Below the pieces are notes generated by a model that was given only the letters and a program-made list of their open reading frames with translations, was not told the DNA's origin and did not search any database. A stretch of DNA of 32,114 bases from Candidatus Glassbacteria bacterium (GTDB taxonomy: Bacteria > Gemmatimonadota > Glassbacteria > GWA2-58-10). Every line of letters begins with the position of its first letter. Position 1 is the stretch's first letter. Below are positions 3,201 to 28,391 of this stretch, one piece after another. The DNA lies in contig JAFGTO010000083.1 in NCBI GenBank assembly GCA_016934095.1, positions 1 to 32,114 on the forward strand, given 5' to 3'. Both the position numbers and the translations under genes were made by a program.

Positions 3201-6200
3201 GGCTGGACCACAACGAGGACACCGGCTTGGACGGGGAGCCGGGGGCCGACCGCGACTGGGTCGAGGGAAGCCCGGATGACGGCAACGACGACTACTACCG
3301 CCCGAGCGAGCAGGATATTGTCGACGGCAGGTGGATCAACCTGACCGAGGGCAACAATAAGGGCATGATCGGGGCCAGCTTCGATACCGAAGACCTCAAC
3401 ACCAACGGAGTCCTGGACCTTACCGAGCGCGTGTTCCGCGTTATCCTCGACCTGAAGACCCTGGAGCTGGAGGGCAGCAACATCCCGGTCGAGGACCGGA
3501 ACGTGATGATCGACCATATACCCTACGACCCGCTGGTCAACGAGGTGCGCCAGAACTGGGAGCACCTTATCGGCACGGACGACTGGTACATGCTGCAGAT
3601 ACCCCTGCCCAAGGAGGGCAGCCGGGCCGAGCAATGGTACCGCAAGATCGGCGGGCCCTCGCTGAGCAACATCCTGCACGTTCGGTTCACCCTTTACGAT
3701 TTCACCAAGGCCGACACGGTGAACTTTGCAGCCGTGGCTTTCGTGGGCAACCGCTTCAAGACGGAGCAGGCGGGGGTATCCCAGCGCCTGGAAGAGACCA
3801 TTATCCTGGACACCCTCTCAACTGAGATTAAAGTCCTGGAGCCGGATGAACAGGAGGTCTCCCAGGCCGGCCTGCTGGCCGCCGGGGGGTTCCGCGGGGT
3901 GGTGGATGTCAACACGGTCAATACCATCCTGAACAACGAGTACTACCCGCCGCCCATGGTCAGCGCCACCCTCAACAAGTTCAACCGCAGCGGCCGTCAG
4001 GAGGATTTCACCGCCCAGGAAAGCGCCCTCAGGCTCGAATACCGCGACCTGCAGAGGGGCTACGAGGGATCGGCCCTCAAGGCCGAGAACAACCAGCAGA
4101 GCTACCTGGATTACGCCTCGATGAGTTTCCATGTCAACGGCCGCCAGGGACCGTACGACCCCAAGCCCACTTTCTTCATCCGCATCGGCACCGACCGCGA
4201 AAACTACTACGAATATTCCATGGCGGTGGATACCGGCTGGACCGAGGTGACCGTGCCGTTCGACGCTTTGCTGAAGCTGAAAGAGGACCAGCAGTCCATG
4301 CTGGACTTGCGCCAGATCCAGAACTTCGACAAGGATGTCAAGCGCGGGCCCTACCGCATCAAGGGCAATCCCTCGCTGACCAAGGTCACGATAATGTCTG
4401 TGGGTATCGCCAACGAGAGCAGCGACGTGCCGGTCTCCGGGGAGATCTGGATCGATGACGTCCGCCTGACCGACGTGATCAAGGAGTTCGGGATCAACAG
4501 CCGGATGCAGGTGGACGCGCAGCTTTCCGACCTGGGCAGGGTCAACTTTTCGGTGGCGGCCCGCGACAACAAGTTCCGCAACCTCAATGAGAGCATCCCC
4601 CGCAACAGCAGCTTCGACTACAATGTCGGCGGCTCGCTGAATGTCGACCGGCTGGTCCCGGACAAGTGGGGACTGAGGCTGCCGGTAAACTTCCGCAAGA
4701 CTTTCCGCCGGAACAGTCCCAGGTTCCACCCGGGGAGCGAGGACGTGACCATCCAGTCGGCCGAGAACAAGGAGCGCTACAAGACCGAGACCACCAGCCA
4801 TAATTTCAGTATCAGCTATTCCAAGAGCAAGGGTACCCGGACCCTGTCGCGTTACCTGTTCGACCGGCTGAACGGTTCCCTGAGCTACAACTCTTCGCGC
4901 ACCATCGCGCCGAAGAGCCTCAGCAACAACACCAGTATCAGCGGCAGGCTGACCTACCGGGCCACCCTGCCGCGGGATGCCGAACAGGCCATTTTCCCCC
5001 CCCGGATTTTCGGCTTCCTGGACAAGGTGCCCCTGCCCTACTTTTTCAAGACCAGCGGTCTGGTACAGGGTGTGGCCCAGACGAAGCTGCGCTACATGCC
5101 CAACGATTTCGAGCTCGACACCTCGGGCAACTACAACCGCAGGGTGAGCTACAACCCGATTTCCGACCTGATCAGCCCGGACACTTCGTTCATGACTACC
5201 AGCGGGGTGAGGGTGCGCTACAGCCCGGTCGTCTCGGCGCAGACCAGCTACGACCTGCAGGTAGACAGAAACATGCTGGCCAAGCAGGAGGGCGGCAAGC
5301 TGCTGGGGTTCGACATCGGCAAAGAGGTCGGGCGCAAGCAGGGAGTGCAGCTTCAGCTTGCGCCCAAGTCGATACCCTGGCTGCAGCCGAACTACCGCTA
5401 CCAGGGCGACTACAACAACGATTTCCTCACGCCGCGGTATAACGGCGTGGAGAGCGTGGACCGCAACTTCCGCAAGTTCGACAGCCGCCGGCAGGAGACA
5501 GTTAACCTGAGGTTCATGCTGCCGCAGTTCCGCAAGTCGCTGGCCGGGATGCGCCTGACCGACCCGGCGGCGGCCAGGAAAAAGCAACAGCAGGCAGCCC
5601 CCGGCAAAAGCTCCTCGGCCGCGTATACGCGGACTCCCAAGAAGCCTGGAGGCACCGGAGGCAAGAGCATTTTCAGCCGGTTCATTTTCAGACCCATCAA
5701 CTATTTCCTCGACAGCTTCGACCCGCTTTCCGTGCAGCTTAGCCGCAACCGGCAGGAGCGCTGGGACAAGATGGAGCGCAACCCGGGGTTGCTCTACCAG
5801 ATCGGGCTGGCCGAGCTGGATGCAGACACCAGGATCCGGCCGACCATGAGCGACTCCACCCGGGTGGACACCGCCAATTTCGCCGCGATGAACTGGAGCT
5901 TCACCCGCGCCTACAGCAGCGGGTTCCGTCTCTACAAGGCCAGGATCAGCGGCAACTACATGGAGAACGGCGGCAACTCACACAATATCAACGGTTACAC
6001 CTTCAACCGCCAGAACGGCCCCGAGTATAACTTCGATTACTCGGATGTCTATGTCCCGGGCTTCCTGCGCGGCGCCCTGGCCAGGGTGGACTTTGCCAGC
6101 GGGTACGAGCTGAAGAAGAGCTTCCGGGGGAACAGCAACAAGATGGTAGTGCTCCAGGAGGGCGATGAGCCGATTGCCTGGGAGCGCCAGCTCGGCGTCG

Positions 6201-6715
6201 AGACTATCACCCGCGAGGAGAACTGGCGGCCCAAGTACAGGGTGTCCGCAGACTGGGGCCGGACCGGTACGATACGCACACGCTACACCAAGAACGAATC
6301 CTACAAGCGGGACTTCCTGCTGGAAACCAACAAATTCTCTATCACCGAAAACTCCGACGACAATTTCAACCTGCAGTACTCTTTCAGCGCACCCCACGGT
6401 ATCTCTTTGCCCTTCCTCAAAGGGATCAAGCTCCAGAGCAATGTCCGCACCTCGATTGATTTAAGCAGAAGGATCAACCGGACTTATACCCAGGTGCTGG
6501 ACGAGCTCGGCAAGGTGGCGCTCGACGACAAGGGCCTGCCGCAGGAAATAATCAACCGGGACACAGAGGACATCTCGATTACACCCACCCTGAGTTATGA
6601 CTTCGCCCAGGTCATCGGCAGCCTCTCGGCTTCCTACAACTCCATGAAAGACCGCAAGAACGGCACAACCCGGGTTACGATCTCGATGAAAGTCACCGTG
6701 CAGCTCGATTTTTGA
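299..6715 (+). CDS. sprA: SprA/Sov-like giant outer-membrane beta-barrel (T9SS translocon homolog)
   Basis: ORF 179..6715 (2178 aa). Likely start is ATG 299 (or 251), giving a signal-peptide-like N-terminus (RRLLQLVMLILLLPAVSQG). SprA-type motifs: DYNSQNEFANRNKIEVKYVGEEDEILQSLELGDV, WPLMLRNVY, GVDYTIDYQFGQL, DTGLDG, TEDLNTNG, GNPSL...SGEIWIDDVRL. Beta-strand-rich C-terminal third ending in Phe (VQLDF, BAM-type signal). Confidence 0.85.
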   Translation: MPEYKPANRLAGPVPGAGRRLLQLVMLILLLPAVSQGFPPDEEGKLPFKVDREKKNRIGFKTVKPFLQLKKIGRERLDYDLETGSVVETIILPGTGGAGDMVLQIHHYSVLDYLDQHVREMEEEAFSEVSSKYLTGEVAAGRQGGTRQGIMPEINLPDFMPKSLASIIGEGTGSLSIHGRSVTELSGTTSFQKPEDQSLFRRQSKFPRLKLDQRQQINIEGVIGTKIHVFVDYNSQNEFANRNKIEVKYVGEEDEILQSLELGDVNLSLPPSMLVSANIPRGNFGIKGQTRLGALTTTFIASKEEGESSNKNIKIPVTGTAEASDSTVLADVNFSTNRHFLLVDTSRIANRHIKFLERRGVVLKNPGEMPQRVRVFKDNANRTDDNTGDNQARPGYMFMDPNHPDPTSNEDLEFGFFNEMVIGRDYVLEECGAVISFVGYVGPQERIGVIYQQLDGNWVGSAGTRPSDTLQLKLIKPDLLNTEHAAWPLMLRNVYSFGGYGAINQTNFSIDIFTNQTPPRYDEYDSKEGKTRTFLEIFGLDNDGDTKVDPAYIDFTRGLVFFPSLEPFRQPYNNENESFALLTKNRLMYTEDAIERLNTREYQKYNIILRYNRAEGSSARTFDLGAMQIVENSERIYINERLLRRGVDYTIDYQFGQLTLKPTVEIPPNSEVKVDFEEVPLFATGNTSLFGFHNEYEFDPQRRNYLTSTMFFQSIESVDRTFVRLGDEPKTSMLGELGGKFEFDSERLTGWLNELPLFQSRTPSRINLTGGLAFSNPNPNTQGGVLIEDFETSKIENPLLRLTHQTWRASSLPEGESGMSYDGWTWEEAATAFWFDPYYLSATRYGFYEQDVFGQIEGRFERHRQLPVSAISVVFEPQRRANGRMIDKVNETEMRRSWRSIVQAVSETGIVGMDEREFLQIFIATGRDQGKLIIDFGQVNEDQVRFNEAGEPVGISRMDTEDKNFDGRLDHNEDTGLDGEPGADRDWVEGSPDDGNDDYYRPSEQDIVDGRWINLTEGNNKGMIGASFDTEDLNTNGVLDLTERVFRVILDLKTLELEGSNIPVEDRNVMIDHIPYDPLVNEVRQNWEHLIGTDDWYMLQIPLPKEGSRAEQWYRKIGGPSLSNILHVRFTLYDFTKADTVNFAAVAFVGNRFKTEQAGVSQRLEETIILDTLSTEIKVLEPDEQEVSQAGLLAAGGFRGVVDVNTVNTILNNEYYPPPMVSATLNKFNRSGRQEDFTAQESALRLEYRDLQRGYEGSALKAENNQQSYLDYASMSFHVNGRQGPYDPKPTFFIRIGTDRENYYEYSMAVDTGWTEVTVPFDALLKLKEDQQSMLDLRQIQNFDKDVKRGPYRIKGNPSLTKVTIMSVGIANESSDVPVSGEIWIDDVRLTDVIKEFGINSRMQVDAQLSDLGRVNFSVAARDNKFRNLNESIPRNSSFDYNVGGSLNVDRLVPDKWGLRLPVNFRKTFRRNSPRFHPGSEDVTIQSAENKERYKTETTSHNFSISYSKSKGTRTLSRYLFDRLNGSLSYNSSRTIAPKSLSNNTSISGRLTYRATLPRDAEQAIFPPRIFGFLDKVPLPYFFKTSGLVQGVAQTKLRYMPNDFELDTSGNYNRRVSYNPISDLISPDTSFMTTSGVRVRYSPVVSAQTSYDLQVDRNMLAKQEGGKLLGFDIGKEVGRKQGVQLQLAPKSIPWLQPNYRYQGDYNNDFLTPRYNGVESVDRNFRKFDSRRQETVNLRFMLPQFRKSLAGMRLTDPAAARKKQQQAAPGKSSSAAYTRTPKKPGGTGGKSIFSRFIFRPINYFLDSFDPLSVQLSRNRQERWDKMERNPGLLYQIGLAELDADTRIRPTMSDSTRVDTANFAAMNWSFTRAYSSGFRLYKARISGNYMENGGNSHNINGYTFNRQNGPEYNFDYSDVYVPGFLRGALARVDFASGYELKKSFRGNSNKMVVLQEGDEPIAWERQLGVETITREENWRPKYRVSADWGRTGTIRTRYTKNESYKRDFLLETNKFSITENSDDNFNLQYSFSAPHGISLPFLKGIKLQSNVRTSIDLSRRINRTYTQVLDELGKVALDDKGLPQEIINRDTEDISITPTLSYDFAQVIGSLSASYNSMKDRKNGTTRVTISMKVTVQLDF

Positions 6716-7096: not shown

Positions 7097-10000
7097 ATGT
7101 CCGGGAACAAGCCTTCATATCAGGAATTGGAAAAAAGAGTGCGGGAGCTCGAGAAAGCAGAGGCCGGGAGAAACCCAAAAGAGAACGGCCTGCCGGAATC
7201 GGGGAAAAATCTTAGAATGATTTTAGACGACCTTACAGATACGATATTTCAACTGACTCCCTCAGGCGTTATTCAATATGTAAGCCCGAACGTAAAAAAA
7301 CTTTGCGGCTATCACCCTGAGGAGCTTATCGGAAAACATCTTAGAAAAACTACGCCCGCTCCCGAGATACCGAAAGCCTTAGAAGCTATCAAGGAAGTCC
7401 TGGCGGGAAAAACGGTAAAAGCCCTGGAAATAAACCAGAAAAACAGCAGGGGAAAAATTATTCCTGTCGAGATCGATGCCGGTCCGGTGAGATTGGGTGG
7501 CAAGATAGTCGCAGTGCAGGGAATTATGAGAGACCTTGCCGAGCGCAAGCAGATAGACAGGCTGCTGCGGGAATCAGAGAAAAAATATCGCGACCTGGTA
7601 AATAACTCCCTGGTGGGTGTATACCAGACAAATCTCAAGGGAGATATTCTCTATGCAAACAAAGCCCTGGCGAAGATTTTCGGTTTCAGGTCAATTGAGA
7701 AGCTCCGGGCAGAAGGAGTTCTTGCCAGGTACAGGGACGTTAAAGACAGAAAAGTCTTAATCGAAAAACTGTTGAATGCAGGCAGGGTTACCAACTTTTC
7801 TTTTGAAGTGGTGGCAAAAACAGGTGCAACGAAGAATGCTTTATTAAGCGCATCTCTCGACGGAGAGGTAATATCAGGAATGATTATGGATGTCACCGGG
7901 CTTAAAATATCGGAAGAGGCGCTGAGAAAAAGTGAAGAGCTGTTCCGTGCTGTAGCGGAATCCGCTTCAGCGGGAATCAGTACTGCAGATGACAAGCAAA
8001 ACCTGATTTATAATAACCCTGCCTTTGTCAAAATGCTGGGCTACTCGAAAAAAGAAATGTCAGGGATGAATATTTCCCGGATTACGGATCCGCAGGAGTA
8101 TGAAAAAATACGGAAGATGACAAAACTGAGAATGAAGGGCCTGAGAAATACATACGAAACCGTGCTGCTTCGCAAGGACGGCACTCCTCTGGATGTAACG
8201 ATTTCAGCCTCGCCGCTTACCTCTCCGGAAGGCGGCTACCAGGAAACGCTTGCAGTCATCAATGATATCACCGAGCGGAAAAAAATGGAAAAAGCCCTGC
8301 TCCGCTCGATTGAAATGGAACGGCTGGTTATTTACATATTGACGGATATTACGAATATCCCTGCCGAGGAAATCGACAGCGGAATAGACCGCACCTTGCG
8401 GTCAATCGGTGAGTTTTTTGGCGTTGACCGTAATTTTCTTTTCCAACTGGCGGAGAACGGAAAACATCTGAAATTGACCCATGAATGGTGTGCCATAGAT
8501 CTGGAGCCGCTGATCGTCAAAACCAAAGAAATACCGGCTTCTTCCAATTATTGGTGGATGAAGCGCCTCAGATGCTTTGAGAACGTTCAGATCCCCCGTA
8601 TGAGTAATCAGCCATCCAAAGCCAAAGCCTTGAGAGACGCTTTTCCGGACCGGGAAATAAAATCACTTCTTCTTATACCGATAATATACGGCCGGTCCCT
8701 TATCGGGTTTACCGGCTATGAATCTATCAGGTCAGAGAAGACCTGGACGGACCAGGATATCGAGCTCCTTATCACGATGGCCGACATAATTGCAAACTCC
8801 ATAGAGCGCAAGAAAACAGAGGAAGCCTTGCTGAAAAGCAAGAAGAAATATCAATCCCTGATAGAGAGCACCAATGACATCGTTTATTCGGTAGATACTA
8901 ATGGAAACTTTACCTATATCAGCCCGCAGGTTAAACGATACGGCTATAGCTGCGAAGAGATCCTTTCCCGAAATTTTCAGGAATGGGTAATCCCTGAAGA
9001 CAGGCAAAGAACACTCCAGGATTTTCAAAGGACAATGTCTACCGGAGAAGAATTTGTCACTTATTTTAGAGTTGCGGATAAAGCAGAACTCACTCATTGG
9101 TTTGAAGAAAACGGCAGGGTCATATATGACCGGGACGGGAATGCCCTGGGTATGACCGGTGTCTTGCGAAACATCGACGAGCGCAAGCAGCTTGAAGAAG
9201 AACTAATCAAGTATGCAAAAATCGAGAGCCTGGGAGTTCTGGCGGGTGGGATAGCTCATGATTTCAACAATATCCTGGGCTCGATCCTGGGGAATATTTC
9301 CCTGGCAAATATGTTGACAGAAAAAGCCGGTAAATCTCACGCTCTCTTAAAGGAGGCTGAGGATGCATGCCTCAGGGCAAAGGATTTAATTCAGCAGTTG
9401 ATCACCTTTTCCAAGGAAGGAGCGCCGGTTAAGAAAACGGCTTCTATTGCGGAGGTGATAGAAGAAACCACGGTCTTTTCTCTTAGAGGAACGAATGTAA
9501 AAAGCGCATTTTACCTTGCTGACGATCTCTGGCCTGCCGAGGTCGATGTCAGCCAGATCAGCCAGGTCATCAACAACCTGGTCATCAACGCCTGCCAGGC
9601 TATGCCGGAAGGCGGCACAATCCGGATTCATGCTCAAAACATCGTTCTCGACAAGGGGAGTACTCTGCCCCTGGATAAAGGCAAATATGTGAAAATTTCA
9701 ATAAAAGATACCGGTACCGGGATATCCCAAAAGCATTTGCCTAAGATCTTCGATCCATATTTCACTACTAAGCAGAAAGGCGGCGGACTTGGCCTTACCA
9801 CAGCTTATTCGATAGTCCAAAAACATTCGGGATGCATTACCGTGGACTCGGAGCTGGGAGTTGGTACGACCATTTACATTTATCTTTCGGCCTCCGTGAA
9901 AAAGGCGCAAAAAGAAAGAATCAGGAAGAAAGCATCTCCGGGGAAAGCGAAAATCCTGGTAATGGATGACGATGAAGGTTTCAGGGATGCGCTGGGCGGA

Positions 10001-10339
10001 GTTTTAACACATTTTGGCCATGAGCTGGTGTTATCGGAAAAAGGAGAAGAGGCGATAGAACAATATATGAGTGCCCTGAAGACGGATCAGCCTTTCGATC
10101 TGGTGATCCTGGACTTAACCGTTAAAGGGGGAATGGGAGGCACGGAAACGCTAAAAAGACTTCTTGAGATAGACCCTGAAGCTAAGGCCGTTGTAACCAG
10201 CGGATATACGAACGATCCGATAATATCTAATTACGAAAAGTATGGCTTTGCCGGTATGATTACAAAACCTTTCAGGGTCCAGGAAGTTAAAGAGCTGTTA
10301 CACGGCATCCTGACTCCGAAAGTAATAACTAAAAAATAA
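7097..10339 (+). CDS. Cytoplasmic hybrid sensor histidine kinase (PAS x3 - GAF - PAS - HisKA - HATPase - REC)
   Basis: Repeated PAS/PAC motifs (YVSPNVKKLCGY..EELIG, DITERKKME), GAF-like segment (KSLLLIPIIYGRSLIGF), H-box LAGGIAHDFNNIL, N-box QVINNLVINACQAM, G1 DTGTGI, F FDPYFTTK, G2 GGGLGL, C-terminal REC (ILVMDDD, LVILDLT, ITKPF). Confidence 0.95.
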   Translation: MSGNKPSYQELEKRVRELEKAEAGRNPKENGLPESGKNLRMILDDLTDTIFQLTPSGVIQYVSPNVKKLCGYHPEELIGKHLRKTTPAPEIPKALEAIKEVLAGKTVKALEINQKNSRGKIIPVEIDAGPVRLGGKIVAVQGIMRDLAERKQIDRLLRESEKKYRDLVNNSLVGVYQTNLKGDILYANKALAKIFGFRSIEKLRAEGVLARYRDVKDRKVLIEKLLNAGRVTNFSFEVVAKTGATKNALLSASLDGEVISGMIMDVTGLKISEEALRKSEELFRAVAESASAGISTADDKQNLIYNNPAFVKMLGYSKKEMSGMNISRITDPQEYEKIRKMTKLRMKGLRNTYETVLLRKDGTPLDVTISASPLTSPEGGYQETLAVINDITERKKMEKALLRSIEMERLVIYILTDITNIPAEEIDSGIDRTLRSIGEFFGVDRNFLFQLAENGKHLKLTHEWCAIDLEPLIVKTKEIPASSNYWWMKRLRCFENVQIPRMSNQPSKAKALRDAFPDREIKSLLLIPIIYGRSLIGFTGYESIRSEKTWTDQDIELLITMADIIANSIERKKTEEALLKSKKKYQSLIESTNDIVYSVDTNGNFTYISPQVKRYGYSCEEILSRNFQEWVIPEDRQRTLQDFQRTMSTGEEFVTYFRVADKAELTHWFEENGRVIYDRDGNALGMTGVLRNIDERKQLEEELIKYAKIESLGVLAGGIAHDFNNILGSILGNISLANMLTEKAGKSHALLKEAEDACLRAKDLIQQLITFSKEGAPVKKTASIAEVIEETTVFSLRGTNVKSAFYLADDLWPAEVDVSQISQVINNLVINACQAMPEGGTIRIHAQNIVLDKGSTLPLDKGKYVKISIKDTGTGISQKHLPKIFDPYFTTKQKGGGLGLTTAYSIVQKHSGCITVDSELGVGTTIYIYLSASVKKAQKERIRKKASPGKAKILVMDDDEGFRDALGGVLTHFGHELVLSEKGEEAIEQYMSALKTDQPFDLVILDLTVKGGMGGTETLKRLLEIDPEAKAVVTSGYTNDPIISNYEKYGFAGMITKPFRVQEVKELLHGILTPKVITKK

Positions 10340-10681: not shown

Positions 10682-11086
10682 ATGTCCTTTCTCACCGGGA
10701 AACAGAAGTTAGCCGCAGCTTTGCTCTGCGCCCTGGCCCTGGTCGGGGCGGGTGTCCGTCTTTTTCTGGCCGAGAGGCGGGGTGCAGGCGGGCAGGCTGC
10801 AGGCGGTGCGGCCGCCGACTCGGCAGTGGTGGCCGCACTGACCGCCGAGCTGGCGGAACAGACCGGCCCGGTGAGGATCAATGCGGCGGATGCACGCACG
10901 CTGGAGCGCCTGCCGGGAATCGGGCCCCTTCTCGCTGCCCGCATCGTTGCTGAGCGCGGCCGGGGAGGCCCTTTCAGCGGACCGGAACAGCTTGCCGCCC
11001 GGGTCAGCGGTATCGGCGCTTCGACTGTGGCGCAGTGGGAGGGAAGGGCCACTTACAGCGACTCAACATCCGGGGAGGGTAAATGA
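10682..11086 (+). CDS. comEA: ComEA-family helix-hairpin-helix DNA-binding protein with N-terminal membrane anchor
   Basis: N-terminal hydrophobic helix and HhH motifs RINAADARTLERLPGIGPLLAARIV and RVSGIGAST. ATG 10682 preferred over TTG 10676. Confidence 0.8.
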   Translation: MSFLTGKQKLAAALLCALALVGAGVRLFLAERRGAGGQAAGGAAADSAVVAALTAELAEQTGPVRINAADARTLERLPGIGPLLAARIVAERGRGGPFSGPEQLAARVSGIGASTVAQWEGRATYSDSTSGEGK

Positions 11087-12447
11087 AAGCCACCCTGTTC
11101 ATTGTCGAGGACGATGTCAATTCAATCGAGCTGATGAAAGAAATTTTCGCCGAGCAGGGTTACGACCTTCGCTGTTTCAGCTCGCCGCTCGCGGCCCTGG
11201 ATGCACTGAGCCGTGAAGGCTTGCCGGACTTGATACTGACCGACCTGATGATGCCGGAAATGGACGGGATCGAGCTGCTGACCAGGCTGAGGCAGATCAG
11301 CAGCCAGCTGCCGGTGATCGTGATGACTGCTTACGGCAGTATAGAAACGGCAGTGGAAGCACTAAAGAAAGGGGCCAGCGATTATATTACCAAGCCGCTG
11401 AGCTTCGAGGAGCTGATGCTGACAGTCTCGACCACCCTCGAGCTTTCCCATCTGCGCCGGCGCCTGGAGGGCCTGAGCCTGGATAAGCGCAGGCGTTTCA
11501 AGCCCGCGGCGCTGACAGGCGAGCACGAGCTGATGAAAAAAGTGAGGGACCAGCTTGTCAAGGTGGCCCAGGCCGAGACCACCTGCGTCCTTCTCCGCGG
11601 TGAGAGCGGCACCGGAAAAAACCTGGCGGCGCGAATCATCCACTATAACAGCCCCCTGGCCAGGGGTCCTTTCGTGGAGCTGAACTGCGCCGCGGTACCG
11701 GCCAACCTGCTCGAGAGCGAGCTTTTCGGCTACAGCAAGGGAGCTTTCACCGGAGCTGTCAGCGATAAACAGGGGATAATCGAGCAGGCCGACGGGGGAA
11801 CTCTTTTCCTGGATGAAATAGGCGAAATGCCGCTGGAGATCCAGTCCAAGATGCTCAATTTTCTCGAGAGCCGGCAGATGCGCCGGCTTGGCGGCCTGAA
11901 AGTACGCGAAGTCAACACCCGCCTGATCACCGCCAGCAACCACGACCTGGAAGCGGCAGTGGACGGGGGCTCGTTCCGCCGCGACCTGTTTTTCCGGATC
12001 AATGTAGTGCACTGCCAGTTGCCCCCTCTCAGGGAGCTGGGCTTGGACGTGCTGATCATAGCCGGGAAGTTCGTCGACGAGTTCAACCGCCAGTTCAACA
12101 AACATGTAGGCGGTATCAGCCCTCAGGCCGAACAGGTCCTGCTGGCCCACGACTGGCCCGGGAACGTCCGCGAGCTGCGCAACGTGGTCGAGCGGGCCAT
12201 GCTTTTCTGCGTCGGGAAACGCCTCGAGGCCGAGGATATCCAGCTCTCGGCCAAAGCCGGAGGCGGCAAAAGTCTGCCCGGAGAATTCCGCATCCCGGCC
12301 GAGGGACTCGACTGGCAGGAACACGAGCGAGCGGTGCTTTCCCAGGCCCTGGCACGCTGCGGCAATAACCGCACCAAAGCCGCCAGGCTGCTGTCGATGT
12401 CCAGGGACACCTTTATCTACCGTCTGAAAAAATTCGGGCTCGACTAA
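11083..12447 (+). CDS. Sigma-54-dependent response regulator (REC-AAA+-Fis HTH, NtrC/AtoC family)
   Basis: REC (IVEDD, LTDLMMP, ITKP), Walker A GESGTGK, intact ESELFGYSKGAFTGA, Walker B LFLDEIG, WPGNVREL, HTH NRTKAARLLSMSRDTFIYRLKKFG. ATGA overlap with comEA. Confidence 0.95.
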   Translation: MKATLFIVEDDVNSIELMKEIFAEQGYDLRCFSSPLAALDALSREGLPDLILTDLMMPEMDGIELLTRLRQISSQLPVIVMTAYGSIETAVEALKKGASDYITKPLSFEELMLTVSTTLELSHLRRRLEGLSLDKRRRFKPAALTGEHELMKKVRDQLVKVAQAETTCVLLRGESGTGKNLAARIIHYNSPLARGPFVELNCAAVPANLLESELFGYSKGAFTGAVSDKQGIIEQADGGTLFLDEIGEMPLEIQSKMLNFLESRQMRRLGGLKVREVNTRLITASNHDLEAAVDGGSFRRDLFFRINVVHCQLPPLRELGLDVLIIAGKFVDEFNRQFNKHVGGISPQAEQVLLAHDWPGNVRELRNVVERAMLFCVGKRLEAEDIQLSAKAGGGKSLPGEFRIPAEGLDWQEHERAVLSQALARCGNNRTKAARLLSMSRDTFIYRLKKFGLD

Positions 12448-12556: not shown

Positions 12557-12585
12557 TTGATTTCTGCGGCGACTCGGGGTACAAT
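12557..12585 (+). promoter_or_regulatory. Sigma-70 promoter for the rsbU-rsbW-STAS operon
   Basis: TTGATT (12557-62), 17-nt spacer, TACAAT (12580-85), followed by SD GGAGA and ATG 12612. Confidence 0.6.
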
Positions 12586-12611: not shown

Positions 12612-13934
12612 ATGCAAAGGGATGATTTAAAAAAACAGGTGGGAAAACTGCGCCGGCAGAACGCAGACTTGAAAAACCAGGTAGGGTTTTTCTCCAGCCT
12701 GATGGACGTGAGTATTATCCTCAGCTCCACTTTCGACCTGGAAGAGCTGATCCGCCGGGTGCTGGAAACCTCGCAGCGGGTCATGAACTCCGAGGCCAGC
12801 AACGTGATGCTGCTCAATGAGGAAACCGGCATGCTGGAGTGCAAGGTGGCCCTGGGGGAAGTGAGTGAACAGCTCAAGAGTGAGTTCACCCTCAAAGTGG
12901 GCCAGGGCATCGCCGGCTGGGTGGCGAAACACGGCGAGTCCCTGGTGGTCGAGGATACCAGCAAGGACGAGCGTTTTTTCTCGGGAGTGGATGCCCGTAC
13001 CGGGTTTGTCACCAGGTCCATCCTGGCCTCGCCCCTTATCGTCCGGGGTAAGGTTATCGGGGTGGCGGAGGTAATCAACCGCGCCGACGGTAAAAGTTTC
13101 ACCAGGGACGACCTGAAACTTTTCGAGGCTTTCTGCCGCGGTGTGTCGGTATCTATCCAGAACGCACAAATGCACCGCCGCCTGCTCGAGAACCAGCGGG
13201 TGGAACAGCAGCTGGAAATGGCCTCGATCATCCAGCAGGGGTTCCTGCCCCGCCACTTCTCGCTGGACCCTCCGAACCAGCCCTATGAGATCGCCGCCAG
13301 GAACCTCCCCGCCAGCATGGTAGGCGGCGACCTCTACGACTGTATCGAGCTGCGGAAAGACCTCTTGGGGTTTACCATCGGGGATGTCTCCGGCAAAGGA
13401 GTGCCCGCCGCTCTCTACATGGCTCGTCTGGTCAGCGATTTCCGTTTTTACGCCCACCAGTTCGAGGACCCTGTCCCCACCATGCAGATACTCAACAAGA
13501 TGCTTGCCGAGCGCAGCCGGCAGGGCATGTTTGTCACCATGATCTACCTGACCCTGGATATCGAACACGGGGTTTTGAAATATGTCAACGGGGGGCATAT
13601 CCCGCCGCTGCTCTATCGCCGGGCCGGCAGTGAAATATCCCGTCTCGACGGAGGCGAAGGCATACCCCTGGGCATCCGCAGCCCGACTGTCTTCAGCGAG
13701 GAAAGGCTGGAAATGAAGCCCGAAGACACCCTGGTCCTGTTCTCGGACGGAATACTGGATGCCAAGAATTCAGCCGGAGAACATTTCTCGGTCAATAAGC
13801 TGGAAAAGACAATCCGCGGCAAATGGGACACCGCCGATGAGCTGGTTTCCAGGATAGTCGACCGGGTGCGCAGCCACGCTGGCGGCGAACACCAGTTCGA
13901 CGACATCACTATCCTGGTGCTCAGGTGGCGCTGA
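12612..13934 (+). CDS. rsbU: GAF-domain SpoIIE/RsbU-family PP2C serine phosphatase
   Basis: N-terminal coiled coil, GAF (GQGIAGWVA, TRSILASPL, VIGVAEVIN), PP2C motifs VGGDLYD, IGDVSGKGVPAA, NGGHIPP, FSDGI, DDITIL. Confidence 0.92.
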   Translation: MQRDDLKKQVGKLRRQNADLKNQVGFFSSLMDVSIILSSTFDLEELIRRVLETSQRVMNSEASNVMLLNEETGMLECKVALGEVSEQLKSEFTLKVGQGIAGWVAKHGESLVVEDTSKDERFFSGVDARTGFVTRSILASPLIVRGKVIGVAEVINRADGKSFTRDDLKLFEAFCRGVSVSIQNAQMHRRLLENQRVEQQLEMASIIQQGFLPRHFSLDPPNQPYEIAARNLPASMVGGDLYDCIELRKDLLGFTIGDVSGKGVPAALYMARLVSDFRFYAHQFEDPVPTMQILNKMLAERSRQGMFVTMIYLTLDIEHGVLKYVNGGHIPPLLYRRAGSEISRLDGGEGIPLGIRSPTVFSEERLEMKPEDTLVLFSDGILDAKNSAGEHFSVNKLEKTIRGKWDTADELVSRIVDRVRSHAGGEHQFDDITILVLRWR

Positions 13935-13938
13935 GACT

Positions 13939-14400
13939 ATGGAAGAATGTCTTGAAATAAAAATACCCGGAAAACCGAAAATGATGCGCCTGGTGCGCCG
14001 TAATGTCTCGATGGCCTGCGAAATGGTGGGTTTCAAGGAGCGTGAGACCAACGCGATAACCCTGGCTGTGGACGAGGGCTGCACTAACATCATCCGCCAC
14101 TGCTACGGCGAGAAAAACGAAGGGCTGATCGTGGTCCGGATTCACATGTTCCCCGATAAGATCGTTGTCTCGCTCAAGGATTTCGGCGGCAAGGTGGACT
14201 TGAGAAAGCTGGAGAGGTGCCGCAAGAAAAAGCAGCGCAGCCTCGAAAGAGCTGGCCCGGTAAAGCCCGGTGGCCTGGGGGTGATGCTGATCCACAATGT
14301 CATGGACAGGGTGCAGTACAAGACCAGCAGCAAATCGGGGACTGTCTTGCGGCTTACAAAATACCTTTCTCATACCAAGGAGGCCGAGGTTGCAGGTTGA
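13939..14400 (+). CDS. rsbW: RsbW/SpoIIAB-type anti-sigma factor / serine kinase (HATPase_c_2)
   Basis: LAVDEGCTNIIRH (N-box), DFG, GGLGVMLIHNVMDRV, GTVLRLTK. Confidence 0.88.
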   Translation: MEECLEIKIPGKPKMMRLVRRNVSMACEMVGFKERETNAITLAVDEGCTNIIRHCYGEKNEGLIVVRIHMFPDKIVVSLKDFGGKVDLRKLERCRKKKQRSLERAGPVKPGGLGVMLIHNVMDRVQYKTSSKSGTVLRLTKYLSHTKEAEVAG

Positions 14401-14719
14401 GGTCAATCGGCGGGGCGATGCCGCAGTCATATCGGTAAGCGGGGACGTGGACTTATATACCAGCCCGGAGGTCCGCAAGGCGATCACCCGGATGTGCAAG
14501 AAAAAGGTGCCGGTCATCGTGATCAACCTGGCGGAAGTGGCCTATATGGATTCGAGCGGGGTGGCGACCCTGGTCGAGGGACTGCAGCTTTCCGGCAGGT
14601 ATGAAGGGGCGTTCCGTATCGTGGGCCTGCAGCCCGCGGTCCGCGAGGTGTTTGAGCTGGCCCGGCTGGACCACGTGTTCGCCATTTTCGAAAGCGAGGA
14701 GCAGGCTGTCGGAGGCTGA
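14390..14719 (+). CDS. rsbV: STAS-domain anti-anti-sigma factor (RsbV/SpoIIAA-like)
   Basis: TTG start at 14390 with AAGGAGG SD at 14377-83, overlapping the rsbW stop. Motifs GDVDLYTSP, YMDSSGVATL (phospho-Ser motif), VREVFELARLD. Confidence 0.9.
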   Translation: MQVEVNRRGDAAVISVSGDVDLYTSPEVRKAITRMCKKKVPVIVINLAEVAYMDSSGVATLVEGLQLSGRYEGAFRIVGLQPAVREVFELARLDHVFAIFESEEQAVGG

Positions 14720-14930
14720 GCTTTCCCCGGCGGCACGCTAAAGCTGAACACCTCGAGTGTGATGTCTTAATCCCGGGGCGGGACAGGGAGTCGTATTCCA
14801 GGGCGGCCGGGATAAATTCTGATATCCGGCCGGCCGGCGGATTGCAGGCTCTCCGTAGCGAGCCGCAGGGAATGCGCCCGGGTGTTCAATTTAAAAAGCT
14901 AATCTATCAAGCCGTGGGGTCTGAAGGGCT

Positions 14931-15761
14931 ATGATGCCGGAGGAGACACTAAAGCGCCAGGGTGTTCTGCCCAGGCTGCTCGGCGGCTGCGGAAGGTGGG
15001 GCCTGCAGTCGCTGGAAAACGTTTATTTCACATTCAGGCTCATCCTGCAGAGCCTTTACTGGACTTTCGTAGCTCCGTTTGCAGGCAAGGGGCTGAGGGT
15101 CGGCAGCTCTTTTGACGAGATGGTCAAGGTGGGGGTCAGCGCGGTCCCCATCGTGGCGCTGATCTCGTTTTCCATCGGCCTGATCCTGGCGATGCAGAGC
15201 GCTTACCAGCTCGAGCAGTTCGGGGCCACCATCTTCACCGCAGACCTGGTGGCGGTCGCCCAGACCCGCGAGCTGGGGCCGCTGATGACCGCTATCATCG
15301 TGGCCGGCCGCTCCGGCAGCGGCATCGCCGCCGAGATCGGCACCATGAAAGTGGGGGAGGAAATCGATGCCCTGCGCTCGATGGGCTTCCACCCGATCAA
15401 GTTCCTGGTGGTGCCCAAGCTGATCGCCCTGGCGATCATGGTGCCCTGCCTGACTGTCCTCGCCGATTTCATCGGCATCGCGGGCGGTTTCAGCATGGCG
15501 GTCCTCAGCCTCAACCTCGGTTTTACCCGCTACCTTAACCGGACTATTTTCGCCCTGGTTTTCAAGGACATGATTACCGGGCTGATCAAGAGTTTCGTTT
15601 TCGCCCTGCTGATTGGGCTGACCGGCTGTTACATGGGTTTCAAAGTCGAGGGGGGAGCAGAGGGAGTGGGCCGCAGAACCACCCAGAGCGTGGTGGTCTC
15701 GATCTTCCTGATTATTCTGGCGGACTCTTTTTTCACGGCGCTTTTCTATTTCCTCTGGTAG
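14931..15761 (+). CDS. mlaE: MlaE-family ABC transporter permease
   Basis: RELGPLMTAIIVAGRSGSGIAAEIGTMKVGEEIDAL, GGAEGVGRRTTQSVV, multiple TM helices. Confidence 0.93.
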   Translation: MMPEETLKRQGVLPRLLGGCGRWGLQSLENVYFTFRLILQSLYWTFVAPFAGKGLRVGSSFDEMVKVGVSAVPIVALISFSIGLILAMQSAYQLEQFGATIFTADLVAVAQTRELGPLMTAIIVAGRSGSGIAAEIGTMKVGEEIDALRSMGFHPIKFLVVPKLIALAIMVPCLTVLADFIGIAGGFSMAVLSLNLGFTRYLNRTIFALVFKDMITGLIKSFVFALLIGLTGCYMGFKVEGGAEGVGRRTTQSVVVSIFLIILADSFFTALFYFLW

Positions 15762-15767
15762 GCTCCG

Positions 15768-16580
15768 ATGGATACGGAAGAAGTGGTGGAGAACATAGTC
15801 GAAATCGAAAACCTGATGGTTTCCTATGACGATCGGGTGGTGCTCGACGGGGTGAACTTCCAGGTGCGCCGGGGCGAGACCATGGTGATTCTGGGCGGCA
15901 GCGGCTGCGGCAAGAGCACGCTCCTGCGCCACATTATCGGGCTGGAGCGGCCCACTTCGGGCCGGATCATGATCAAGGGCCGGGATCTCACCGTAATGGG
16001 AGAGGAAGAGATGTCCGGCATCCTCAGCAAGGTCGGAGTGGTGTTCCAGAGTTCGGCCCTGTTCAACTCGATGACCATCGGGGACAACGTGGCGCTGCCG
16101 TTGCGCGAGCACACCAAGCTCGAAGAATCCACCATCAAGATCATGACCAAGATCAAGCTCGAAATGGTGGGCCTGTCGGGTTTCGAAAGCTACCTGCCCA
16201 GCGAGCTGAGCGGCGGGATGCGCAAGCGCGCCGCTTTTGCCAGGGCAATCTCGATGGACCCGGAGATCCTCTTCTGCGATGAGCCCTCGGCCGGCCTGGA
16301 CCCGATAGTGGGAGCGGGCCTGGACCAGTTGATTATCAAGCTGAGTAAGGCTCTGCGCATGACTATCGTGGTGGTCACCCACGAGATGGAATCGATGTAC
16401 ACCATCGCCGACCGGGTGCTGATGCTGCACAACGGCCGGGTAATGTTCTGCGGGACAGTGGAGGAGTTCAGGGCCTGCGACAACGAGAGGGTCCGGCAGT
16501 TCATCGAGCGGCGGCCGGAGGAGCACCACGAAGAGGAATCCGGCCAGTATGTCCGCGCCCTGACCAGCGACTCTTTCTAA
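15768..16580 (+). CDS. mlaF: MlaF/Mkl-family ABC transporter ATP-binding protein
   Basis: Walker A GGSGCGKS, FQSSALFNSM, signature ELSGGMRKR, Walker B FCDEPSAGLDP, VTH. Confidence 0.93.
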   Translation: MDTEEVVENIVEIENLMVSYDDRVVLDGVNFQVRRGETMVILGGSGCGKSTLLRHIIGLERPTSGRIMIKGRDLTVMGEEEMSGILSKVGVVFQSSALFNSMTIGDNVALPLREHTKLEESTIKIMTKIKLEMVGLSGFESYLPSELSGGMRKRAAFARAISMDPEILFCDEPSAGLDPIVGAGLDQLIIKLSKALRMTIVVVTHEMESMYTIADRVLMLHNGRVMFCGTVEEFRACDNERVRQFIERRPEEHHEEESGQYVRALTSDSF

Positions 16581-16613
16581 AAGCATCGCGGAGTTTCGGC
16601 CTCCCCAGCGCAG

Positions 16614-16622
16614 TGGTATAAT
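16614..16622 (+). promoter_or_regulatory. Extended -10 promoter element upstream of mlaD
   Basis: TGGTATAAT (TGn + perfect TATAAT) in the 111-nt mlaF-mlaD gap. Confidence 0.45.
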
Positions 16623-16691
16623 ACCGGTTAATAATTTCCGGGAAGGTTTCCGCCTCGCCCGGGCCTACTACCTCTCAACGGGAAGAGTTTC

Positions 16692-17603
16692 ATGGCAAAA
16701 TATGCGCGCTATCGCTCCTCGGAAATCAAAGCCGGGATCTGGATTATCATCGCAGGGGTAATTTTCACCGCTTTCGTGGTGGCGATCACCGGCTCCAGGT
16801 TCTGGGAGGAACTGGACTATTACCGTGTGCGGCTGAACTATGTAGGCGGCCTTGAAGTCGGCTCGCCCGTGCGCATGAGCGGTATGCTGGTGGGCAAGAT
16901 CAGCGGTGTAAGACTGCTGGACCATGAAGAAAGCCTGCTGGAGCTGACCCTCGAGGTGGAAAAGGGATTGCCGATCAAGTACAATACGGTAGCCTTCCTG
17001 AGCTCTATCTCGATCACCAGCGAGCAGCACCTCGAGATGGAGGTGAACCCCGAGCCGGCTCCCCTGTTGAAACCGGGGGACCTGATCAAGAGCAAGGAGC
17101 TTACCACCATGGATGAGGTGATGGAGCATGTCGGCGACGTGGGGGATACCCTGAAAGTGGTCCTCGGCCGGGTGAACCGGCTGTTGAACCCGACCAATCT
17201 CGCCCGGGTGGACTCGATCGTTATGGGAGTCAACAACCTGTTGAAGGAAGCTTCCCCGGAGCTGAAAACCACCCTGGCCCGCACGCGCAGGGCCGTGGAA
17301 TCGCTGGATACGCTGCTGCATAATGTCAATGCCCTGGTGGCCGAGGGAGATACCAGGATTCTCTCTGTGCTGGACGAGGCCGGGGAGACGATGAGACAGG
17401 CCAGGGTGGTCCTGGCCGGGGTGGACACCACCCTGATGAACGTTGACCGGTTGATGCTTGGCAACTCCGGCGATCTCCAGCAGCTGCTCGACAACCTGAG
17501 CGAGACCAGCCGGAACCTCAAACAGCTCTCCGGCACGATCAAGGACAACCCGTTCCTGTTGATCCGGGCCTTTCCCAAGGAAGAACGCAAGCTGGCTCCC
17601 TGA
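16692..17603 (+). CDS. mlaD: MCE/MlaD-family protein with long C-terminal helical domain
   Basis: N-terminal TM (EIKAGIWIII), MCE motif GGLEVGSPVRMSGMLVGKI, heptad-rich helical tail ending KDNPFLLI. Confidence 0.88.
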   Translation: MAKYARYRSSEIKAGIWIIIAGVIFTAFVVAITGSRFWEELDYYRVRLNYVGGLEVGSPVRMSGMLVGKISGVRLLDHEESLLELTLEVEKGLPIKYNTVAFLSSISITSEQHLEMEVNPEPAPLLKPGDLIKSKELTTMDEVMEHVGDVGDTLKVVLGRVNRLLNPTNLARVDSIVMGVNNLLKEASPELKTTLARTRRAVESLDTLLHNVNALVAEGDTRILSVLDEAGETMRQARVVLAGVDTTLMNVDRLMLGNSGDLQQLLDNLSETSRNLKQLSGTIKDNPFLLIRAFPKEERKLAP

Positions 17604-24418: not shown

Positions 24419-25585
24419 TTAACAAATATCTCCCGGTTTATCTTCTTCCGTGCCCGGTGTCTTCCCTGCCTGTTCCAGCAGCTCCGCCCCAGCCTCTGCC
24501 ACCCTTTCCGGCCCGATACTTTTCATGCAGCGGAAATGTCCCAGCGGGCAGCGCCTCCTGCCGTTATGGGTGCAGGGCCTGCACCAGAGCTCGGCCTCCA
24601 CCACCCTGGCGGCCTCTGACCGGTAGGGGAAATAGCCCAGGTGCCGGGTGGTGCAGCCGAACACCGCCACCACCGGAGTCCCGACCGCGGTGGCGACATG
24701 CATCAGGCCGGTGTCATTGGTGAGCAGCAGGCTGCTCTGGGCCACGGCCGCTGCAGAAGCGGCCAGCGGCAGTGCCCCGGCCAGGTTCAGCCGCTCTACC
24801 CTGCGGTCCAGGGCATCCTCCACCGCCCGGCAGGCCCCGGAGTCATCCCCGCTGCCGAGCAGTAGCACTTTCAGCCCGTAGCTTTGCGCCAGCCCGGCAG
24901 CCGCGGCGGCGAAGCTGGCCGGCGGCCACCTTTTGGTGGGCCAGGCGGAGCCCGGCGCAACCGCCAGCAGGCGGTTGCCCGCCGGCCAGCACCCCCGGAT
25001 CTTCTCCAATGCCAGGTCCCGCTCCCGCTCACCCGGGTAAAGCTCGCAGGGAGCGCTGTCAAGCTCGACTCCCAATCCCGCGAGCGGCTTCGCATACCGC
25101 TCGGGCACGCTGAGGATGCGCTCGCCGAATAAATCCAGGCGGCCGTAAATCAGCAGCGACCTTTTCCACAACTGCTTGCTGTAGACAACTGTCTCCACGG
25201 CAGGGACCAGGGTCCGCAGCAAGCGGCTGCGCAGGCTGTCGTGAAGGTCGGCCAGCAGGAAGAGCCTCTTCCGTTTAAGGCTGTCGGAAAGGCTCATGAG
25301 CTCTCTGACTCCGCCGCCGGAGCTGAAAGGGATTATCTCATCGAGATATGGATTGCCCTCCAGCAGGGGGGCGAAAGTGTCCTTGACCAGGAAGCTGACA
25401 CGCGACCCGGGCCAGCGGCGGCGCACTGCCCGGATCACCGGGGTGGTCAGCAGCACGTCCCCGATGGAGCTGAACCGCACCAGCAGTATGGAAGGCTCGG
25501 TCGGCAGCGGAAGGCTCTCTTTTCGGCTCGGCCCAGGAAAGGCTTCATTGACAATTGAGGGCCTGAGTTCTAATATGAGTGGCAT
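24419..25585 (-). CDS. GT9 ADP-heptose:LPS heptosyltransferase (WaaF-like)
   Basis: ILLVRFSSIGDVLLTTP, DLHDSLRS, APGSAWPTKRWP, NDTGLMHVA, CRPC...CPLGHFRCM. Start uncertain: nearest ATG is 25585, and a CTG at 25507 fits the paralog better. Confidence 0.88.
   Translation of the reverse strand: MPLILELRPSIVNEAFPGPSRKESLPLPTEPSILLVRFSSIGDVLLTTPVIRAVRRRWPGSRVSFLVKDTFAPLLEGNPYLDEIIPFSSGGGVRELMSLSDSLKRKRLFLLADLHDSLRSRLLRTLVPAVETVVYSKQLWKRSLLIYGRLDLFGERILSVPERYAKPLAGLGVELDSAPCELYPGERERDLALEKIRGCWPAGNRLLAVAPGSAWPTKRWPPASFAAAAAGLAQSYGLKVLLLGSGDDSGACRAVEDALDRRVERLNLAGALPLAASAAAVAQSSLLLTNDTGLMHVATAVGTPVVAVFGCTTRHLGYFPYRSEAARVVEAELWCRPCTHNGRRRCPLGHFRCMKSIGPERVAEAGAELLEQAGKTPGTEEDKPGDIC
25548..25576 (+). 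promoter_or_regulatory. Sigma-70 promoter for porX-waaF
   Basis: TTGACA (25548-53), 17-nt spacer, TAATAT (25571-76). Confidence 0.6.
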
Positions 25586-25720
25586 CGATAATGAACGCTT
25601 TTCCCCCGGGGGTGTGCAGGAAAGCGGAATCCCCCGGCACCCGCGGTAAAAAGCCGTTCGCTGAAAACTCGTGCCCGGAGTCGGAGCGGGCAACCTAAAT
25701 TTAGATAAGGGACAATTTAG

Positions 25721-27332: not shown

Positions 27333-28391
27333 GTGCCGGCCCGATTCGATAGGATCCTGATTTTCAACAGCGCCTTTCCCGGCGATATAGTTCTTACCAC
27401 TCCGCTGATCCGTGCCGCATACCAGAGCTTTCCCGGCGCCAGCCTGACTTTCTGCACTACCGAGGCCGGAGCTTCCCTGCTGGCCGGCATGTCTTACCTC
27501 GACAGCCTGATTGTCTACGATAAGCACGGTCGCGACAAGGGGACCTGGGGCATGCTGAAAACCGCCGCCAGGCTGCGCCGGGAAAGCTTCGACCTGGTGT
27601 TTGCGGCCCACCGCAGCGCCCGGACCGCCATGTTGCTGGCCCTGGCCGGGATCCCGGTGCGTGTGGGGTTCCAGCACGGCTCCGCCTCCTGGCTGTATAC
27701 CCACCTGGCGAAGAGAAGACCCGGGGCCCACGAGACGGAACGCAACCTGAGCCTGCTCGGTCCGCTGGGGATAGAGCTGGGGGAACTTTCCCGGAAACCC
27801 GTGCTGCCGGTAACCGGCGAGGAAGCCAACCACGTTTTCGGCCACCTGGGCGTGGGCCTGCCGCGCGGGCGCGGGCCGCTGGTGATAGTCGCCCCTGGTT
27901 CGGTCTGGGGCACCAAGCAGTGGTTCGCCGACAGGTTCGCCGGTTTGATCGAGTTGCTGACAGCGGCACATGCGGCGCGGGTGATCATGGTCGGTAGCCC
28001 CTTGGACCGGGCCCAGGCCGATAAGGTTGCCGACGCCTGCCGGTGCGAGTTCCTGGACTTGGTGGGAATGACCGACCTGCGCGGCCTGACCGCCCTGATC
28101 CGCAAGGCCGACCTGGTGATTACCGGCGACAGCGCGCCGATGCATATCGCCTGGGCCATGGATACGCCTGCGGTGGCTATTTTCGGCGCGACCACTCCGG
28201 AGCTGGGCTTCGCCCCGCTGTCCGGGCGCTGCCGGGTGGTGGAAATAAAAAGCCTCGAATGCCGGCCCTGCAGCGAGCACGGGCCCAGAAACTGCCCCCT
28301 GGGGCATTTCCGCTGCATGAGCGGAATCACTGTCGATATGGTCATGACCGCCTGCGAGGAAATGCTGCGGCTCGGACCCGATCGAAATTAA
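27333..28391 (+). CDS. waaF: GT9 LPS heptosyltransferase II (WaaF/RfaF-like)
   Basis: ILIFNSAFPGDIVLTTP, HRSART, APGSVWGTKQW, GDSAPMHIA, CRPCSEHG...CPLGHFRCM. GTG start. Confidence 0.85.
   Translation: MPARFDRILIFNSAFPGDIVLTTPLIRAAYQSFPGASLTFCTTEAGASLLAGMSYLDSLIVYDKHGRDKGTWGMLKTAARLRRESFDLVFAAHRSARTAMLLALAGIPVRVGFQHGSASWLYTHLAKRRPGAHETERNLSLLGPLGIELGELSRKPVLPVTGEEANHVFGHLGVGLPRGRGPLVIVAPGSVWGTKQWFADRFAGLIELLTAAHAARVIMVGSPLDRAQADKVADACRCEFLDLVGMTDLRGLTALIRKADLVITGDSAPMHIAWAMDTPAVAIFGATTPELGFAPLSGRCRVVEIKSLECRPCSEHGPRNCPLGHFRCMSGITVDMVMTACEEMLRLGPDRN

Follow-up and report, generated by a model that had tools for sequence, protein, structure and literature searches.

The stretch of DNA analysed here (the window; 32,114 nucleotides, nt) is contig C79 in a metagenome-assembled genome that totals 3.80 Mb over 604 contigs and is 84% complete. 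This genome's nearest labelled relatives, going by the labels in our survey of STAS relatives, are Candidatus Glassbacteria or 'Gemmatimonadales'. Between positions 12612 and 17603, all on the forward strand, it encodes a partner-switching module, namely a GAF-PP2C phosphatase, an RsbW-type serine kinase, and a STAS protein, followed by the MlaE, MlaF, and MlaD proteins of an MCE-type lipid transporter of the ATP-binding cassette (ABC) class; each of the six genes was confirmed by Pfam. The features of this cluster are as follows.

12557..12585, forward strand: promoter-like site of the sigma-70 type, TTGATT-17-TACAAT, upstream of the phosphatase gene (motif scan)
12612..13934, forward strand: GAF-PP2C (SpoIIE-family) Ser phosphatase, 440 residues (Pfam SpoIIE 2e-47, GAF 5e-17)
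13939..14400, forward strand: RsbW/SpoIIAB-type GHKL Ser kinase, 153 residues (Pfam HATPase_c_2 2e-24, profile positions 2-127 of 127)
14390..14719, forward strand: STAS protein of the SpoIIAA/RsbV type, 109 residues, the proposed MlaB-equivalent subunit (Pfam STAS 1e-21; TIGR00377 87.7 bits, above cut-off)
14720..14930, forward strand: spacer of 211 nt separating STAS from mlaE (the motif scan shows neither a promoter-like nor a terminator-like site)
14931..15761, forward strand: MlaE permease, 276 residues (Pfam MlaE 6e-79; TIGR00056 242 bits, above the 212-bit cut-off)
15768..16580, forward strand: MlaF ABC ATPase, 270 residues, with an LSGGM signature and a C-terminal extension holding Tyr261/Leu265 (solved MlaF chains are the top matches)
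16692..17603, forward strand: MlaD/MCE protein, 303 residues (Pfam MlaD 5e-12; TIGR00996 8e-18 over residues 15-277, below cut-off)

Within the cluster, the gaps between genes are 4 nt (phosphatase to kinase), 211 nt (STAS to mlaE), 6 nt (mlaE to mlaF), and 111 nt (mlaF to mlaD). The STAS gene most likely starts at the TTG at 14390, with an AAGGAGG 7 nt upstream, rather than at the ATG at 14297; read from this TTG, it encodes 109 residues and shares 11 nt with the end of the kinase gene. The initial annotation, made from the sequence alone, had described the phosphatase, kinase, and STAS genes as tightly coupled and followed on the same strand by mlaE-mlaF-mlaD, with the phospho-Ser motif YMDSSG kept in the STAS protein and with neither a sigma factor gene nor a separate mlaB, mlaC, or mlaA in the window. 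This description is borne out: the Pfam matches, the gaps, and the overlap agree with it; the motif occupies STAS residues 52-57, with the phospho-acceptor Ser55 inside DSSG; all 11 sigma70_r2 matches of the genome fall on contigs other than this one, which carries one STAS gene only; and MlaC (PF05494) and MlaA (PF04333) have no match anywhere in the genome at its 84% completeness. Since neither MlaC nor MlaA was found, the periplasmic route may differ from that of E. coli.

All three proteins of the switch retain the residues on which their families depend for catalysis or phosphate acceptance. The phosphatase comprises an N-terminal coiled stretch, a GAF domain (residues 42-184), and a PP2C domain (residues 252-440), and its metal-binding Asp motifs GGD, GDVSGKG, DG, and DDxT are kept in 37 orthologues. 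In the kinase, the N (DE..N..H), G1 (DxG), and G2 (PGGLG) boxes are kept across 72 sequences, and the NCBIfam RsbW equivalog scores 88 bits, under its 145-bit cut-off. In the STAS protein, D54-S55-S56-G57 and A59-Q66 (the start of helix α2) are invariant among 66 aligned sequences, and Ser55 aligns with the phospho-Ser of SpoIIAA, which is the position mutated to Ala in chain 1tid_B. The module looks closed, in that the genome holds a single stand-alone RsbW-type kinase (that of the window), a single strong SpoIIE-family phosphatase, and a single STAS protein of the DSSG type, the two other STAS proteins carrying DGFG and NSVG at the acceptor site. These two Ser-less proteins (C122:1335-1694(-) and C452:275-682(+)) are single-domain and have SH3-domain and VWA-domain proteins as neighbours.

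On the transporter side, the MlaF of the window has chain 7d06 (6e-61) and E. coli MlaF (5e-53) as its top solved relatives, and its C-terminal extension aligns with the E. coli MlaF tail at Tyr261 and Leu265. In E. coli, these two residues insert into the MlaF-MlaB groove, as passages in Kolich et al. (2020, PMC7367683) describe. Among 64 cluster-linked MlaF proteins, Tyr261 is kept in 92% and Leu265 in 84%. MlaD comprises a transmembrane helix (residues 10-33), an MCE domain (residues 41-134), and ∼150 residues of C-terminal helices, according to AlphaFold2 secondary structure.

We examined the linkage between switch and transporter at two levels, the first being the 12 genomes of the family f1. 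A kinase orthologue is present in 11 of these 12 (54-64% identity), and in all 11 the order PP2C-kinase-STAS-MlaE-MlaF-MlaD-Lon is colinear. The twelfth, the same-genus genome G001, was considered as a counter-example and is uninformative, because its contig with the mlaE orthologue ends 105 nt upstream of that gene. In the rest of the phylum, kinase relatives are only weak or fused, and the strong orthologue is confined to the one family. Six loci in two other families of the phylum (L070-L075, from genomes G014, G016, G018, G020, G022, and G024) hold the nearest such relative (33-37% identity) as a domain in an open frame of 1011-1050 residues that also contains PP2C, that is, as a kinase-phosphatase fusion, with no Mla gene nearby.

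For the second level, a related-locus search with the kinase protein gave no relative, and the survey beyond the family used the STAS protein as the query; it confirmed 298 STAS relatives, of which the top 80 (43-70% identity) were covered, with ∼6 kb fetched on each side and neighbour genes identified by tblastn. These 80 carry more than 10 phylum-level labels, including KSB1, Calditrichota, NC10/Methylomirabilota, Tectomicrobia, Nitrospinota, Acidobacteriota/Terriglobia, Moduliflexus, Thermodesulfobacteriota, and Brocadiia, among others. Of the 71 loci whose downstream DNA extends for 900 nt or more, 67 have an mlaE gene directly 3' of the STAS gene and on the same strand, and of the 62 in which it extends for 3200 nt or more, 59 have the full set of mlaE, mlaF, and mlaD. 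The kinase gene stands directly 5' of the STAS gene in 74 of the 80 loci, and a PP2C match was found upstream in 49 of 72 testable loci. In many loci, and in many other phyla, the spacer of the window is missing, and the two genes instead share 4 nt where the STAS gene ends and mlaE begins. The linkage between STAS and mla genes is not a local accident, given that the adjacency recurs in so many testable loci and phyla, and its conservation at 43-70% identity, in records that bear more than 10 different phylum-level labels, points to selection on the linkage.

Loci with a different gene order are informative in this respect. Four of the 71 loci (L136, L150, L154, and L155) are exceptions to the rule of a downstream mlaE, and in one of them, L155, the order is mlaF-mlaE-mlaD-STAS-mlaC, with the kinase and PP2C genes divergent and adjoining. 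In L127 the order is mlaE-mlaD-lipoprotein-mlaF-STAS, and in L106, L110, and L117 the STAS-mlaEFD genes occur without an adjacent kinase. The gene order thus changes while the STAS gene stays inside the mla operon, and the rearranged loci place it in the MlaB slot of an operon of the mlaFED(B)C type. Some of the surveyed loci have peculiarities of their own. Two Moduliflexus/UASB270-type loci, L106 (7966-11358) and L117 (3178-5685), encode giant MlaD proteins of 1131 and 836 residues, that of L106 having long coiled regions and a Mce4_CUP1 match, and extra DNA of ∼3.9 kb (L081, 7124-11012) and ∼1 kb (L098, 7249-8223) lies between mlaE and mlaF in two other loci.

We also searched for a sigma factor that could be the target of this module. 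The genome encodes RpoD, two RpoS/RpoH-like proteins, FliA, and seven extracytoplasmic function (ECF) sigma factors. No SigB/F/G-type sigma factor was found in this 84%-complete genome, where the best match reached 126 bits against a cut-off of 234, and the cut-off was passed in none of five other carrier genomes with long contigs; among the control genomes, only Bacillus subtilis passed it. A gene of the sigma70 family lies within ∼6 kb in 5 of the 80 surveyed loci, each time ECF-like and on the opposite strand, and in none of the 80 does a sigma factor gene stand beside the kinase gene. The kinase may nevertheless bind a sigma factor of another class.

We next consider the predicted contact between the STAS protein and MlaF, each of which entered the complex prediction with a 64-row alignment. 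The predicted complex reached an interaction prediction score from aligned errors (ipSAE) of 0.71 (0.71, 0.71, and 0.74 in the individual runs), the best control reaching 0.02. Of 157 solved complexes, 116 attain this mark, as do 2 of 215 mismatched pairs. Agreement between the runs was at least 95% of contacts, with a predicted local distance difference test score (pLDDT) of ∼90 for the partners. In the model, residues 112-133, 163-164, and 195-196 of MlaF, which belong to its helical subdomain, face residues 21-29, 54-63, and 86-93 of the STAS protein, and the predicted interface centres on STAS Ser55 and Ser56, which contact MlaF residues 116-130. For E. coli, passages in Kolich et al. (2020, PMC7367683) place MlaB Thr52 centrally at the MlaF-MlaB interface and state that a Thr52Glu mutation weakens binding. 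The predicted docking reproduces this E. coli mode, with the Ser equivalent to Thr52 in the central position; further, a profile of 64 STAS orthologues aligned with E. coli MlaB by hhalign (probability 81%, E-value 1.2e-5) sets Ser55 on MlaB Thr52. Conservation is consistent with such an interface, the mean top-residue frequency being 0.88 at the interface positions of the STAS protein versus 0.55 elsewhere, and 0.81 versus 0.68 in MlaF (permutation p ∼0.02).

The initial annotation had proposed that the STAS protein acts as the MlaB equivalent and that Ser phosphorylation switches the transporter. This proposal is supported by the synteny, which turned out to be conserved far beyond the family, by the rearranged loci, by the finding that no cognate SigB/SigF-type sigma factor exceeds the cut-off in this genome or in the five other carriers, and by the modelled STAS-MlaF complex with a Ser at the centre of its interface. 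We consider it very likely that the switch and the transporter are functionally coupled, and we hold, with less assurance, that the STAS protein is probably a MlaB-equivalent cytoplasmic subunit of MlaFED that can be switched by phosphorylation through its own kinase and phosphatase. Under this reading, the unphosphorylated STAS protein would use its helical face, namely the DSSG loop and helix α2, to dock on the MlaF helical subdomain, Tyr261/Leu265 in the C-terminal tail of the neighbouring MlaF would help to hold it there, and docking would stabilize and activate the ATPase on MlaE, as it does with E. coli MlaB. The RsbW-type kinase would bind the same face of the STAS protein and phosphorylate Ser55, and the phosphate would eject the STAS protein from MlaF as well as from the kinase, turning the transporter off. 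The GAF-PP2C phosphatase would strip the phosphate upon a ligand sensed by its GAF domain, re-arming the transporter. The competitor of the kinase for the STAS protein would then be an ABC ATPase instead of a sigma factor. Gene content, conserved linkage, catalytic and acceptor residues, and the lack of a SigB/F/G-type sigma factor are direct observations, and the STAS-MlaF interface has the support of the model; beyond these, we infer the physical binding, the phosphorylation, its sign (unphosphorylated being on), the nature of the signal, and which lipid is carried in which direction.

Several observations weigh against this assignment. First, by sequence and fold the STAS protein is a canonical RsbV/SpoIIAA-type protein outside the MlaB family. 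Its matches to sequences of solved structures include TM1442 (3e-12), SpoIIAA (2e-10), and RsbV (5e-7), and MlaB is absent among the 14 such matches at E-values up to 1; its monomer model (pLDDT 94) superposes best, in Foldseek, on RsbV and SpoIIAA (template-modelling (TM) scores of 0.85-0.92), and the E. coli MlaB chains come in at ranks 33 and 44 (TM scores of 0.59-0.73). The NCBIfam name for the protein is simply 'anti-sigma factor antagonist'. Second, the surveyed loci were picked by STAS similarity and are kin, not independent samples, with 218 more distant relatives left out; the phosphatase gene is not adjacent in 23 of 72 loci, and L136, L150, and L154 encode a related STAS protein with no Mla gene within the ∼6 kb fetched per side. 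Third, the spacer between STAS and mlaE is not conserved within the family, where it ranges from 46 to ∼690 nt, so that co-transcription is possible rather than certain here. Fourth, the complex of E. coli MlaF and MlaB has been solved, so the passing model may reflect memory, and such a pass indicates likeness and is not proof that the STAS-MlaF pair binds; likewise, the kinase and the phosphatase also need the STAS face concerned, so the conservation of this face does not single out MlaF. Fifth, at 84% completeness of the genome, a gene for a sigma factor or for MlaB, MlaC, or MlaA could have been missed. Finally, the genome has a second mlaE-mlaF-mlaD operon (contig C62:223-2711), which has no STAS gene as judged from a genome of the same genus in which the DNA upstream can be read (L161, 6177-7736); there the operon begins 4 nt after dnaB. 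In favour of the assignment, however, the MlaF paralogue of this STAS-less operon on C62 has no C-terminal tail and matches the MlaF of the window at only 7 of 18 interface positions.

Among the alternatives, the one that survives best keeps the transporter as the target but moves the contact, such that, for example, the kinase contacts or phosphorylates MlaF or MlaE, the STAS protein docks on MlaE or MlaD, or the STAS protein has a second output beyond the transporter. The conserved kinase-STAS-MlaEFD core is indeed silent on which of these proteins touch, and STAS modules with non-sigma targets have been published, an example being the Anabaena glycosyltransferase case of 2026, as far as extracts of that report go. 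We nonetheless regard this alternative as unlikely, since the modelled STAS-MlaF complex passes by a large margin in the MlaB mode, MlaF retains the tail that fills the MlaB groove, and STAS-mlaEFD loci without an adjacent kinase exist.

A second alternative is a canonical partner switch, in which the kinase is an anti-sigma factor for a sigma factor encoded elsewhere (for example, FliA or one of the two RpoS/RpoH-like proteins), and the mla operon is merely a neighbour, perhaps a regulated one. It would fit the close relationship of the STAS protein (by sequence and fold) and the kinase to RsbV/SpoIIAA and RsbW, the presence in the genome of two group-2/3-like sigma factors of 285-296 residues alongside FliA, the 211-nt spacer between STAS and mlaE in the window, and the genome completeness of 84%. 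However, no sigma factor at the level of SigB/F/G was found in this genome or the five carriers, and none is encoded beside the kinase in the 80 loci; the 4-nt overlaps of STAS with mlaE, as well as the STAS gene embedded in mlaFED-C, are hard to explain by mere neighbourhood, and three loci combine STAS and mlaEFD with no adjacent kinase. We therefore judge a canonical switch to be improbable. That the linkage is purely historical, the block having spread by vertical descent and horizontal transfer with no functional coupling, would suit a set of loci that are kin selected by STAS similarity and, within the phylum, a strong orthologue confined to one family (11 of 12 genomes), as expected from block transfer, but it is scarcely credible for an association that outlasts changes of gene order in several lineages and shows frequent stop/start codon overlaps.

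A STAS protein acting as an MlaB equivalent can be compared with two known kinds of system. As in E. coli MlaFEDB, (i) an MlaE/MlaF/MlaD transporter is encoded in an operon with a small cytoplasmic STAS protein, and (ii) the Tyr261/Leu265 tail and the LSGGM signature are shared, with docking on the helical subdomain of MlaF, around the Ser equivalent to Thr52, predicted by the model. Unlike E. coli MlaB, the STAS protein here is of the RsbV/SpoIIAA type, has an invariant DSSG, and is accompanied by a kinase of its own and, in most cases, by a PP2C phosphatase, whereas in E. coli no MlaB kinase is known, going by excerpts of the published work. Further, the STAS gene precedes the transporter genes here but stands last in E. 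coli, neither MlaC nor MlaA gave a match here (the related locus L155 does have mlaC), and MlaD carries ∼150 extra helical residues. The switch itself is composed of the same three families as the RsbU-RsbV-RsbW and SpoIIE-SpoIIAA-SpoIIAB modules of Bacillus, with catalytic and acceptor residues kept; it differs from them in lacking a sigma factor gene in the operon and, as far as searched, in the genome, in its order of phosphatase-kinase-STAS and then transporter, and in that the proposed competitor of the kinase is an ABC ATPase.

Sigma-less switches with a STAS output are not without precedent, HsbR-HsbA and BtrU-V-W being two such systems and, going by excerpts of the literature, SypE-SypA and the Anabaena HenR module two more. 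All of these have a STAS protein that can be phosphorylated and whose target is not a sigma factor. In the cluster described here, the STAS protein would act instead on the nucleotide-binding subunit of a lipid ABC transporter of the MCE type. Phosphorylation of MlaB at Thr52 has itself been hypothesized, without a kinase, in passages of Thong et al. (2016, PMC5016091) and Kolich et al. (2020, PMC7367683), and the former also states that some permeases have fused STAS domains. Among the best-ranked matches to broad queries of the open full-text literature, which leaves subscription journals outside, no report links an Mla/MCE transporter with an RsbW-type kinase, a PP2C phosphatase, or partner switching, and a 2021 review on STAS-only proteins has zero occurrences of Mla, ABC transporter, lipid, and MCE.

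The regulation of Mla transporters is an acknowledged open question, for which this cluster offers a natural case of STAS and transporter genes that adjoin those of a dedicated kinase and phosphatase. Because such a cluster is conserved over many phyla, the hypothesis of MlaB phosphorylation becomes directly testable with four or five recombinant proteins. If the proposed assignment is true, the ATPase of an ABC transporter joins the short list of non-sigma outputs of partner switches, and thousands of genes of Acidobacteriota, Nitrospinota, NC10, KSB1, and other groups that now bear the name 'anti-sigma factor antagonist' or 'anti-sigma regulatory factor' need to be re-read as encoding transporter regulators. 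A broader generalization, to which we give an even chance, is that these clusters represent a widespread and unrecognized class of MCE lipid transporters gated post-translationally, in which the STAS protein would alternate between kinase and MlaF, the sensory phosphatase would set envelope lipid transport within seconds, and the kinase-less MlaB of E. coli would be a degenerate remnant of such a switch. Under this generalization, the phosphoregulation suggested for MlaB in 2016 and 2020 would occur in nature, with a kinase that can be identified.

As for transcription, the PP2C gene is preceded in 12 of 12 family loci by a block TTGATTTAT...GGTA(C/A)AAT, which constitutes a conserved sigma-70-like promoter. 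A motif scan found no promoter-like site in the 211-nt spacer, and an RNA element or terminator in this spacer was rejected, as it has no Rfam match, a fold z-score of -1.6, and no terminator-like site. In one family locus (L065, ∼8800-9540, genome G006), the spacer is swollen to ∼690 nt by G+C-rich palindromic repeats (CCCCC...GGGGG) that have the look of inserted repeats.

The cluster is flanked by genes for an NtrC-type regulator and a hybrid histidine kinase upstream and for Lon downstream. The NtrC-type sigma-54 activator (window 11083-12447) lies directly upstream and is kept there in 8 of 11 family loci, and genes resembling sigma-54 activators occur near the cluster in other phyla too (for example, L106, L125, and L132). 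Control of the cluster by this regulator through sigma-54 was rejected, as the 12 family loci show no conserved -24/-12 element, be it ahead of the PP2C gene or within the spacer that separates STAS from mlaE. The hybrid PAS/GAF histidine kinase with a receiver domain (window 7097-10339) has a G+C content of ∼46-47%, against ∼60% around it, and may be a recent insertion; it was rejected as a part of the system on account of this lower G+C content and of its having no counterpart beside the cluster in 11 family loci. Lon was likewise set aside, since it directly follows mlaD only within the family. Elsewhere in the window, positions 25721-27289 encode a fusion of a response regulator with a PglZ domain. 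An open reading frame of 2178 residues at 179-6715 has a match to SprA_N, of the type IX secretion translocon family, and heptosyltransferase genes lie at 24419-25693 and 27333-28391; both are features typical of outer-membrane bacteria.

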